A stretch of 64,000 nt of DNA from positions 296 through 64,295 of the forward strand of contig CAZHYZ010000002.1 of assembly GCA_964537195.1 (NCBI GenBank), written 5' to 3'. This stretch comes from an uncultured Methanosarcinales archaeon. Its GTDB lineage: Archaea; Nanobdellota; Nanobdellia; Woesearchaeales; GW2011-AR15. Position 1 is the first letter of the stretch, and each line of letters opens with the position of its first letter. Of the stretch, positions 24,307 through 26,621 are shown piece by piece. A program made the translations under genes and the position numbers. The notes beneath the pieces are model-generated. The model did not search any database. It saw nothing but the letters and a program-made list of their open reading frames with translations, and was not told the DNA's origin.

Positions 24307-24648
24307 ATGATTACTCCTGTACAAATAATCGCTTTAATCTTTGTAACTTTTGCTGCCAGTAGGGCCATACTTCGAGCAAAGGACAAAAAAATCACTTTTG
24401 GAGAATTAATTTTTTGGTTAGGCATATGGAGCGGACTTGTTTTTGTGGTATTCTTCCCAGATGTAACAACTCGAATTGCTAAACTTGTTGGAATAGGGAG
24501 GGGGATTGATGTTATAGTTTACATAAGTATATCCCTTTTATTCTATCTAATTTTTAGGTTATATGTGAAAATCGAAGAAACAGAAAGTGAGATAACAAAG
24601 CTTGTAAGAGAGATCTCATTGATGGATAAAAAAAAGAAGAAAAAATGA
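24307..24648 (+). CDS. DUF2304-family small membrane protein
   Basis: Three TM segments with GIGRGID motif and C-terminal EITKLVREI; usual partner of GT2. Confidence 0.85.
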   Translation: MITPVQIIALIFVTFAASRAILRAKDKKITFGELIFWLGIWSGLVFVVFFPDVTTRIAKLVGIGRGIDVIVYISISLLFYLIFRLYVKIEETESEITKLVREISLMDKKKKKK

Positions 24649-25799
24649 ATGTCTTACTTTTGACAGAATATTTTCCTGCTTCTCTAAAAGGAGAAATAAC
24701 TGGGGGTGTCGAATCAAGGGTATTTAACATTGCTAAGGGCCTGGCCAAAAAACACAAAGTAAGAATAATGACTTCTTGGAGAAACAACCTAAAAAGACAT
24801 GAGTTTTTTGAAAATATTGAAGTGATCCGGGTTGGGCCGGAGCACAAATACTCTAACTATGGGGGATTTGTTTCTAGGTTGTTATTTGCGCGTGCTGTTT
24901 GTAAAAAGGGGGCCTCTTTAGAAAACGTTGAACTGGTACATGGTTTCAACTTTACAACATACCTGCCAGCATACAAAATAGCAAAAAAAATAGATAAAAA
25001 AGTTGTGATTACATATCACGAAACCTGGGTAAATGAATGGATTAAGAATAAGGGGTTGGTCTCTGGTTTTCCATACGAATTATATGAAAGATTTCTTTTG
25101 AAACTAGACTATGATTCTATAATCAGTGTAAGTGAATTCACAAAAAAAAGATTGATTCGGGCCGGAATCCACAAAAAAAAGATTGAAGTTATTCCTAATG
25201 GAATTGATTTTTCTTATCTGAATAATTTGAAATCAAAGAAATATAACTCCCCAACTATTTGTTTTGTTGGAAGATTAGTTAAAACAAAAAATGTTGAAGT
25301 TCTCATCAATGCAATAAAAATAATAAAAGCTAGAATTCCAGACATTAAGTGTAAAATAATTGGAAAGGGGCCTGAGGAAAACAAACTAAAAAATTTGGTT
25401 AAAAGATTAAACTTGGTTAATACTATTGAATTTCTTGGTTTTTTGCCAAATTATGAGGATGTTGTAAAAACATTGCGTTCGTCACATATTTTCTGCTTCC
25501 CTAGTACTGTGGAGGGGTTTGGGATTGTAATGATAGAATCCATGGCACTAAAGACCCCTTATGTTTGCTCAGACATTCCGGTTCTAAAGGAGATAACGCA
25601 AAACGGAAAGGGCGGGGAAATTTTCAAGAAGAACGAGTCTAATGACTTAGCAAAAAAAGTACTGAGTCTCTTAACAAATAAAAAAGAATATAGAAAAAAA
25701 CAGAAAGAAGCAGAAGAACTAGCTAAGAAGTATGATTGGAAAACTGTTGTAAAAATGGTTGAAAAAAGATACGAAAAAGTAATCAAGACAAAACAATAA
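24645..25799 (+). CDS. Glycosyltransferase family 4 (GT-B)
   Basis: GGVESRV, VIPNGID, FVGRLVKTKNV, PSTVEGFGIVMIESMA. Confidence 0.93.
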   Translation: MNVLLLTEYFPASLKGEITGGVESRVFNIAKGLAKKHKVRIMTSWRNNLKRHEFFENIEVIRVGPEHKYSNYGGFVSRLLFARAVCKKGASLENVELVHGFNFTTYLPAYKIAKKIDKKVVITYHETWVNEWIKNKGLVSGFPYELYERFLLKLDYDSIISVSEFTKKRLIRAGIHKKKIEVIPNGIDFSYLNNLKSKKYNSPTICFVGRLVKTKNVEVLINAIKIIKARIPDIKCKIIGKGPEENKLKNLVKRLNLVNTIEFLGFLPNYEDVVKTLRSSHIFCFPSTVEGFGIVMIESMALKTPYVCSDIPVLKEITQNGKGGEIFKKNESNDLAKKVLSLLTNKKEYRKKQKEAEELAKKYDWKTVVKMVEKRYEKVIKTKQ

Positions 25800-25844
25800 A
25801 ACTTAAATATCTCTAAAACATAACTATGTTATAGCACATAAAAT

Positions 25845-25970
25845 GTGCTGGGTGGGGGGAGGTAAGCTCGATCCTGGAGCCCATGCCAATTTTCAAACAT
25901 GAAAAACATGTGTAGAACTTTGGTTTAATGCCCAGGCGGGATGTGAAAAATCCTATGTGGGCTTCCCCAC
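25845..25970 (+). ncRNA. Candidate structured non-coding RNA of unknown class
   Basis: GC-rich stretch in AT-rich DNA with nested pairings (GTGGGG/CCCCAC, AAGCTC/GGGCTT, CCTGG/CCAGG, ACATG/CATGT, GGAT/ATCC); TATA-like CTTAAATA at 25802-25809. The strand is inferred. Confidence 0.4.
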
Positions 25971-26621
25971 TTTTAATATTATTACTAATTCTCCTTTTAT
26001 TTTTCTGCCCTTAATTGTTTCATGTACATCTTTTGCAGGTCCCCTAATAAATTCCTCGAATTTTTTTGTGAGTTCCCTAGCTATTACAACTTCTGCATAA
26101 GGTAACTCTTTTGAAAGTAAACTCACAGTAGAAGCTATCCTGTGAGGTGATTCAAAAAAAACAGCGGTCTCTAAACGTTTTTTAAACAGATTAATTAAGT
26201 TTTTTTTCCCAGATTTTTTCTTTGGGAAGAATCCATAAAAAGTAAATCTGTCTGTTGGTAATCCAGAACACACAAGTCCTGCTAATATGGCTGAAGGACC
26301 CGGAACAGGAGATACAACAATGTCTTTTTTTATGCATGCTCTAATTAAATAAAAACCTGGGTCGCTTATTCCGGGAGAACCGGCATCACTCACCAAAGCA
26401 ATATCATGTCTCCTCAGATCTTCCAAAATCCTTGGTGTCTTTTTCTCTTTGTTATGGTCATTATAGGACACAAGTTTATTTTTTATATCGTGTCTTAATA
26501 AAAGTTTTGCAGTTCTTCTTGTGTCTTCCGCCAATACATAATCAACACAATTTAGTATGGATAACGCTCTATGTGTGATGTCCTCCATATTCCCGATGGG
26601 TGTAGAAACTACATATAACAT
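25953..26621 (-). CDS. rsmI: 16S rRNA (cytidine1402-2'-O)-methyltransferase, bacterial type
   Basis: LYVVSTPIGNMEDI, AEDTR, LVSDAGSPGISDPG, FFESPHR, RELTKKFEE. Confidence 0.94.
   Translation of the reverse strand: MLYVVSTPIGNMEDITHRALSILNCVDYVLAEDTRRTAKLLLRHDIKNKLVSYNDHNKEKKTPRILEDLRRHDIALVSDAGSPGISDPGFYLIRACIKKDIVVSPVPGPSAILAGLVCSGLPTDRFTFYGFFPKKKSGKKNLINLFKKRLETAVFFESPHRIASTVSLLSKELPYAEVVIARELTKKFEEFIRGPAKDVHETIKGRKIKGELVIILKVGKPT

Follow-up and report, generated by a model that had tools for sequence, protein, structure and literature searches.

Positions 25832 to 25974 (+) of the 64-kb window, i.e. the whole stretch of DNA that was analysed, very probably hold an independent gene whose product is a small structured non-coding RNA and which is vertically inherited within a single family of the Woesearchaeales. 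Judged from the comparison of genome sequences, it represents an RNA family that is absent from Rfam and found only in that one Woesearchaeales family. The initial annotation had proposed an orphan structured RNA gene at this place, and our analysis upholds the proposal with a promoter, a conserved fold and no matching family in Rfam. The host assembly is a 1.24-Mb, 97%-complete DPANN genome. DPANN archaea have very small genomes, and to our knowledge hardly any non-coding RNAs have been described from them apart from the universal ones. The finding adds a well-supported RNA family missing from Rfam, with a minimal core of ~58 nt and natural variants of up to 226 nt, and this clear core together with the size variants makes synthesis and probing easy. 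The gain is a better annotation of the Woesearchaeales and a defined loop motif with which a binding partner could be sought. Since the family is narrow and the RNA dispensable, the impact should be moderate, unless the loop mimics a ribosomal site or has an activity of its own.

Genomic context and anatomy of the element

The element lies on the + strand between the gene of a GT4 glycosyltransferase (24645-25799, +) and the convergent rsmI gene (25953-26621, -), which encodes an RsmI-type methyltransferase and whose ORF is recognized by Pfam as TP_methylase. ORFs and Pfam domains bear out what had been said of these two neighbours and of the 3' end of the RNA being antisense to the last rsmI codons. 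Six codons of rsmI lie within the RNA gene. The predicted rsmI product ends in ..KVGKPT* in this genome, ~5 residues longer than in the relatives (..VILIN*, ..LVLVIN*), so that the ORF extends into the 3' strand of the RNA gene and the two genes overlap by 18 nt. In the relatives the rsmI stop codon adjoins the T-run of the RNA, and any overlap is confined to that T-run. The element had also been called GC-rich; its G+C content is indeed higher than that of the surroundings (~30%), but only modestly so, with a peak at 48%.

The RNA would be transcribed from its own promoter. The TATA-like box noted earlier at 25802-25809 (+) is present (CTTAAATA), with its end 23 nt upstream of the 5' hairpin. 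In 9 of the 10 homologues such a box is found at a comparable spacing, 19-24 nt upstream of the hairpin (its position was read by eye in G002, G003, G012, G013 and G018), and in G018, where the hairpin is marginal, it stands 21 nt before the G-run. The spacing equals that of the tRNA promoters of this genome, and hence the base of the hairpin should be where transcription starts. If the TATA spacing sets the start and the oligo-T run the end, the whole transcript would be ~143 nt long (25832-25974, +). This is the layout of a stand-alone archaeal non-coding RNA gene, i.e. a TATA box ~23-30 nt before the start and an oligo-T stop.

Two inverted repeats had been pointed out upstream of the folded region, and both are there, but only one of them is conserved. 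The repeat GCACAT-AAA-ATGTGC is the 5' hairpin of the RNA, whereas AACATA-AC-TATGTT (25817-25830), which sits between the TATA box and the putative RNA start, has no counterpart at the nine homologous loci and may be a chance repeat or a genome-specific operator. The 5' hairpin (AGCACAU-AAA-AUGUGCU, 7 bp; 25833-25849, +) has a counterpart in 9 of the 10 homologues, which ends 0-1 nt before the G-run. The hairpin sequence differs between genomes, and in 8 of 10 genomes the hairpin is more stable than 96% or more of its shuffles. G.U pairs in the hairpins of G012 and G013 point to an RNA rather than a DNA palindrome.

Downstream of the hairpin, the 5' strand of helix P1 (25851-25870, +) is made of the G-run GGUGGGGG, a bulge GAGGUA and AGCUCG. 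It pairs with the 3' strand, UGGGCU UCCCCACU (25958-25971, +), in a fold constrained by the core, with the outer helix GUGGGG (25852-57)/CCCCAC (25965-70) and AAGCUC (25864-69)/GGGCUU (25959-64); the 3' strand has an alternative local pairing, GUGGG-CUUC-CCCAC. The G-run follows the consensus GGGGWGG in all 10 homologues and pairs with a pyrimidine-rich 3' strand. The 5' strand of P2 (25873-25880, +) reads CCUGG, followed by a bulged A (A25878) and two G-C pairs (25879-80), and is matched by GC and CCAGG (25932-36) in the 3' strand (25930-25936, +); the two strands covary, with four of the seven pairs varying on both sides across the ten genomes. An asymmetric internal loop comes next. Its 5' side is CCAU (25881-25884, +; consensus YYAU in alignment A3, with A and U invariant) and its 3' side UUAAU (25925-25929, +; consensus UNAAY in the same alignment, with U and AA invariant). 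The P3 arm (25885-25924, +) has a GCCAA/UUGGU base, an inner 3-bp helix and an ACAUG-AAAAA-CAUGU tip (25897-25911), and four of the five pairs of its foot vary on both sides.

The third arm of the junction, a GGGAU-GUGAAAA-AUCCU hairpin (25938-25954, +), folds but is seen in this genome only; the relatives have other inserts at its position or merely an A-rich linker. A pairing of its loop with UUUUCA at 25890-95 is conceivable but not significant (p about 0.1). The gene closes with an oligo-T stop signal (25971-25974, +). In 8 of the 10 homologues P1 is followed by a run of 4-7 T; in G018 (AATT) and G013 (TATTTT) the run is broken. All helices named in the initial annotation were found at their places when the sequence was read directly.

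We found no conserved reading frame when the 10 homologues were inspected by eye. The frames that begin at the conserved AUG of the internal loop have 3 to 20 codons and encode unrelated peptides, and the arm lengths differ by numbers that are not multiples of three, which together argue against a conserved ORF.

Homologues, synteny and distribution

A BLAST search of 60 relatives with the element yielded short seeds only, two of which lay just downstream of rsmI in G001 and G002. We therefore ran a synteny search with the RsmI protein across the 20 species genomes of the same GTDB family, read the DNA 3' of each rsmI, and then built and searched a covariance model of the core. The model gave one strong match per genome, plus two further copies (G008 and G017). 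The copies in G002 and G003 were spotted by eye; the model scored the former only weakly (15.7 bits) and missed the latter. In total, 10 of the 20 genomes, from at least seven genera, carry one copy each (G000, G001, G002, G003, G004, G008, G012, G013, G017 and G018). The homology search in DPANN genomes with covariation testing that had been suggested earlier thus yielded homologues in nine other genomes, with compensatory changes among them.

All 10 carriers have the RNA gene at a common locus, i.e. the tail of an nrdR / small HTH / rsmI block, and G005 and G006 have apparent decayed remnants there. This distribution indicates, as far as gene order and sequence comparison tell, vertical inheritance at one locus with repeated loss. 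As half of the family lacks the RNA, its function must be non-essential and the RNA dispensable.

Outside the family no copy turned up. With the core model, 301 genomes of the order gave family members only, plus a few low-scoring matches within coding sequence, and 401 genomes of the phylum gave no further members, the matches in L169 and L170 also lying in coding sequence. In 185,579 species genomes, a pattern of the short form matched the four minimal forms already known and, apart from these, six chance sites only, and no copy was found at 80 metagenome rsmI loci (RsmI identity 46-61%).

The close neighbourhood of the two genes raises the possibility that the element is a cis-antisense or stop module, which damps or ends the convergent rsmI through the overlap of their 3' ends. 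The arrangement is tail to tail in 8 genomes with overlaps of 0-18 nt, and in this genome the third arm, read on the minus strand, puts a T5 run just past the rsmI stop codon. However, the presence of the RNA follows neither rsmI nor the neighbouring HTH gene across the family. In G008 and G017 the RNA gene and its promoter are kept beside the HTH gene though rsmI was not found (G017 is 71% complete), which makes a role linked to rsmI unlikely. Besides, the relatives overlap only at the T-run, archaeal transcription stops need only oligo-T, and such a module would not account for the fixed internal loop and the covarying helices, which are 60-100 nt distant from the rsmI gene. We consider such a module very improbable.

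The homologues differ widely in size, from 58 to 226 nt between G-run and T-run, the shortest being those of G017 (58 nt) and G018 (65 nt). At its smallest the P3 arm is a 3-bp hairpin (G017, G018), at its largest it is long and branched (G001, G002); the linker between P2' and P1' varies from AAAA to ~75 nt. The order of the core elements is P2 (4-6 bp), the bulged A, two G-C pairs, YYAU, P3, UNAAY, two G-C pairs and P2'.

Covariation and coding strand

Covariation was tested for 12 core pairs on the ten natural core sequences, aligned with plain MAFFT and not fitted to any structure. We observed that 93.9% of the cells of these pairs are paired versus 75.9% in shuffles, and that 8 of the 12 pairs vary on both sides. 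The covariation score is 0.557 versus 0.231, and none of 500 shuffles scored as high. When the partners were slid by 1-3 columns, pairing fell to 21-50%. RNAalifold independently recovered the same core helices. These statistics rest on few independent changes, as they come from ten sequences of one family. For P1, the single-sequence shuffle p ranges from 0.005 to 0.5 and the support is mainly its complementary composition; P1 and the long-range contact described below are less firmly supported than P2 and P3.

Several observations place the gene on the + strand, i.e. the position of the promoter, the T-run, the five G.U cells of the core with no A.C cells, and a P1 duplex that is stabler on this strand than as its reverse complement in 9 of 10 genomes.

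We also considered that there might be no RNA gene at all, and that chance repeats, a DNA palindrome site or plain terminator hairpins fill the space between convergent genes. A terminator-like hairpin with a T-run does exist at 25957-25970, and AT-rich spacers often hold repeats. The compensatory changes across at least seven genera largely refute this reading, and strand-specific G.U pairs, the conserved position of the promoter and the fixed loop sequence speak against it too, as does the distance of 8 to >60 nt between the arms of the helices. A mobile repeat is unlikely with one copy per genome. Taken as a whole, the absence of an RNA gene is extremely improbable, and we continue with the RNA gene.

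Folding energy and the conserved fold

The 125-nt core folds at -47 kcal/mol, with z = -3.0 against shuffles. With the 5' hairpin included (143 nt, 25832-25974), the energy is -55.4 kcal/mol with z = -4.87, and none of 200 shuffles was as good, so the comparison with shuffled controls that had been proposed as a check came out in favour of the RNA (z = -4.9 when rounded). The opposite strand folds more weakly (-38.1).

The fold of lowest energy is not the conserved one. Taken alone, this copy has a four-arm cloverleaf of ~120 nt as its minimum-energy fold. When only both G-C pairs and P3 pairs 1-3 are fixed, it adopts a three-way junction, whose energy of -43.9 kcal/mol is 3 kcal/mol higher than that of the cloverleaf. 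Folding of the homologues showed that the cloverleaf cannot form in the relatives, and since the core-constrained fold gives the junction here, we take the junction as the conserved fold. The three-way junction of the initial annotation thereby stands, its long CCUGG/CCAGG arm and outer helix being supported by covariation in the relatives and the lower-energy cloverleaf being unconserved. The case also illustrates that a minimum-energy fold of a single sequence can mislead, and that comparison of relatives finds the real fold.

The cloverleaf, together with the many intron-laden tRNA genes of this genome, was our reason to examine a tRNA reading closely, in which the element would be a tRNA, possibly with an odd intron and of the Glu-UUC type, or a decayed tRNA-like gene. 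The cloverleaf has a D-arm-like GCUC-GAUCCUG-GAGC and an end helix of 7-9 bp, its UUUUCAA loop could hold a Glu anticodon, and too few tRNAs are detected in the genome. Against this, ARAGORN with and without introns found nothing, the Rfam tRNA model (RF00005) had no match at E<=10 on 401 nt, and the locus is absent from its 23 genome-wide matches at E<=1. Every tRNA match of the genome has a GGTTC[GA]A T-loop, whereas the element has no such string, be it the short GTTCRA or the longer GGTTCRAnTCC, and its end helix and D-like arm are separated by 7 nt, not 2. The likeness is also limited to this genome, as homologues of 58-80 nt are single hairpins that cannot form a cloverleaf, and the covarying P2 clashes with the cloverleaf helices and excludes D-like and T-like stems. 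We give the tRNA reading virtually no chance.

Comparison with known RNA classes

A cmscan of the whole window against Rfam 15 at gathering scores gave no match to any family, and positions 25700-26100 searched at E<=10 gave nothing relevant. The earlier statement that the element does not fit tRNA, 5S rRNA, SRP RNA, RNase P RNA or the TPP riboswitch agrees with Rfam, with ARAGORN and with the true genes found elsewhere; for HDV, which had been named too, the comparison is that of the Rfam scan. The sole 5S rRNA match of the genome is at C2:67709-67856 (56.4 bits), with none at this locus, while the true SRP RNA (RF01857) is at C1:192885-193152 (131.6 bits) and the true RNase P RNA (RF00373) at C2:127549-127845 (144.7 bits). 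With these genes sited elsewhere, the element is none of the three. It resembles 5S rRNA (RF00001) in its length of ~120 nt, its three-way junction and the string CCCAUGCC, which resembles loop C of bacterial 5S rRNA; here, however, this string spans an internal loop and a helix and not a hairpin loop.

Other classes fared similarly. Box C/D and H/ACA RNAs were looked for in the 10 aligned sequences, which have no conserved RUGAUGA, GA.AG tandem or terminal ACA; CUGA occurs only in some copies, within helix P2, and no Rfam guide-RNA family rose above noise. No riboswitch model, either TPP (RF00059) or any other in Rfam, matched at E<=10, and the + strand downstream is antisense of rsmI only. 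A bulge-helix-bulge motif is absent from the conserved fold by eye, as P1 has one 6-nt bulge, the P2/P3 loop is 4 x 5 nt and there is no 4-bp central helix. A weak alpha_tmRNA match in G003 (21.7 bits) was gone on rescan. Further likenesses failed the inspection of pairing or the Rfam search, i.e. loop C of 5S rRNA as above, domain V of group II introns (GAGCCGUAUGC), the P4-P5 hairpin of TPP, the yybP-ykoY Mn riboswitch (GGGGAGUAG, GUGAG/CUCAC), the pistol ribozyme and the K-turn.

In its overall character the element is closer to RNAs recognized by composition or comparison. Klein, Misulovin and Eddy reportedly found the Hgc RNAs in 2002 as G+C-rich islands in AT-rich methanogens, and raiA-type orphan motifs are structured RNAs found by comparative genomics. 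Common to these and the present RNA are a stand-alone promoter, an AT-rich genome, raised G+C, covarying helices and no ORF. The present RNA differs from them in having no sequence or model match (all of Rfam 15) and in being confined to one Woesearchaeales family.

Possible functions

Our data suggest, tentatively, that the RNA binds a protein, as the scaffold of a small RNP or as a decoy, which we rate at somewhat under an even chance; the combined picture of an RNA gene with a predicted protein-binding role we regard as about evenly balanced. The RNA would be transcribed from its own TATA promoter, begin with the short 5' hairpin and stop at the oligo-T run. Its G-rich 5' strand pairs with the pyrimidine-rich 3' strand as P1, which closes the ends of the RNA. 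The conserved heart consists of P2 with its bulged A and two G-C pairs, the asymmetric and nearly fixed loop, and P3. All other parts are variable add-ons, namely the extension of the P3 arm, the linkers and, in this genome, the third arm. The fixed loop, clamped by G-C pairs, may serve as the recognition site for the protein, with P1 and the 5' hairpin protecting the ends and the add-ons stiffening the fold.

This proposal draws on the pattern of conservation. Among the unpaired positions, only those of a single internal loop, with strands of 4 and 5 nt, are nearly fixed. Fixed unpaired letters confined to one loop, helices that vary freely and an elastic periphery are the signature of a specific recognition site carried by a stable closed hairpin, a protein being its simplest ligand. 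The arrangement of this loop plus helix occurs once in the 1.24-Mb genome. As the fixed letters lie within a helix loop and the motif is unique in the genome, a protein site is favoured over a seed for base pairing. A comparable design is known from helix 8 of bacterial 4.5S / SRP RNA, with which the element shares paired ends, a long irregular hairpin, a conserved asymmetric loop near the tip and a variable periphery; it differs in having no helix-8 loop sequences and no GNAR tip, and in being dispensable.

A different role would be that of a trans-acting sRNA, which pairs with mRNAs after P1 opens, either via the G-run GGGGWGG or via the 3' strand, which is anti-Shine-Dalgarno-like (CUCCUUUU, CCUCCCC). 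The G-run sequence is kept in 10 of 10 copies and is partly bulged or unpaired in several genomes, and the 3' strands resemble the 16S tail of the family (..CACCUCCUUUU). Yet the two candidate seeds pair with each other in every homologue, the middle letter W of the G-run is U in half of the genomes and breaks the match to CCUCC, and the best-conserved letters are in the internal loop rather than in the G-run. We hold an sRNA function to be rather unlikely, and return to a protein-binding RNA as the preferred reading.

The fixed asymmetric loop between G-C helices would also suit an RNA that takes up a compact tertiary fold and catalyses a reaction, binds a ligand or mimics a factor, e.g. a new small ribozyme, an aptamer or a mimic of the decoding-site loop of 16S helix 44. 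In most copies the loop of the 5' hairpin is A-rich or GNRA (GAAA in G008 and G017, GUGA in G004) and could dock on the internal loop, which partly resembles the 11-nt GNRA-tetraloop receptor (UAUGG/CCUAAG). Both that receptor and the loop of 16S h44 are, like the loop here, A-rich, asymmetric and G-C clamped, with a fixed AU facing U and AA, but the present loop is larger (4 x 5 nt), and the likeness is a lead only. The arm tip may also make a long-range contact with the 3' linker, through CGUGAG/CUCACG in G001 and G002, UGUGAG/CUCACA in G004 and UGGG/CCCA in G003, the first two forms differing by one compensatory change. It is suggestive in five genomes, though each pairing alone is not significant (p 0.08-0.2), and the minimal forms of 58-65 nt do without long-range pairing. 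Moreover, no ribozyme or riboswitch model of Rfam matches at E<=10, there is no downstream gene to control, the RNA persists where rsmI was not found, and these resemblances emerged after many motifs had been tried. A compact RNA of this kind is in our view distinctly unlikely.

One special form of it concerns the ribosome. The decoding-site region of helix 44 contains C1402, the target of RsmI, and A1408, A1492 and A1493. The fixed loop and the adjoining GCC/GGC helix might imitate this region, and the RNA would then act as a decoy for, or a sensor of, a factor, a toxin or a small molecule at the decoding centre; more broadly, it might be a functional RNA of a new, compact kind, with docking through the 5' hairpin loop and through contact between loops, and not just tether a protein. 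The loop and P3 foot of four genomes read CAUGCCAA..UUGGCUUAA, near the CAAGCCAA..GGGCUAAG of 16S rRNA. Seven genomes of the family contain that part of 16S, and the six with full coverage do not differ in its decoding-site stretch. Such mimicry has, to our judgement, a very slim chance of being right, and a protein-binding RNA is still the reading we prefer.

Other observations at rsmI, tRNA and rRNA loci

Two Woesearchaeota-like contigs (L077, Ga0187827_10004694, and L079, Ga0209541_10036771) share a different, conserved and hairpin-rich stretch 3' of rsmI, ..CCTTTTATTGAAGC..GAAACAGT...ACTGTACTGAAAA..CTTCTTTTCAGGCTTGTTT, which may be another small RNA at a similar site. In G017, a standard tRNA gene (L054 41-111, +; 61 bits) lies ~150 nt upstream of the RNA gene, and the spacer between them holds repeated TATA-like boxes (..CCATATAAA.. 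/ ..CTATATAAAG..). The record CAYMPC010000006.1 (L156 = G012:C6) is titled 'uncultured Methanosarcinales archaeon'. Since G012 groups with the GTDB family of Woesearchaeota MAGs and has the nrdR-HTH-rsmI-RNA locus, this title is probably a mislabel.

Only 16 tRNA matches pass the Rfam cut-off in the 97%-complete genome studied here, none of them within the window, and several tRNAs, such as Glu, Asp, Val and, outside the rRNA spacer, Ala, were not detected. Many of its tRNA genes have long or non-canonical introns in the D-loop, T-loop or anticodon loop, e.g. C1:117452-117550(-), C17:13293-13400(+) and C8:6315-6438(-). The 16S-23S spacer contains, at C15:26190-26290 (+), a tRNA-like gene whose anticodon region is interrupted by an intron; its score of 26.9 bits does not reach the cut-off. 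The 5S rRNA gene at C2:67709-67856 (-), 3.4 kb beyond the end of the window (L027 1501-1648), has a 35-nt insertion in loop C directly behind the conserved CCCAU. The 3' end of the 16S rRNA of this genome reads GGAUCACCUCCUUUU.
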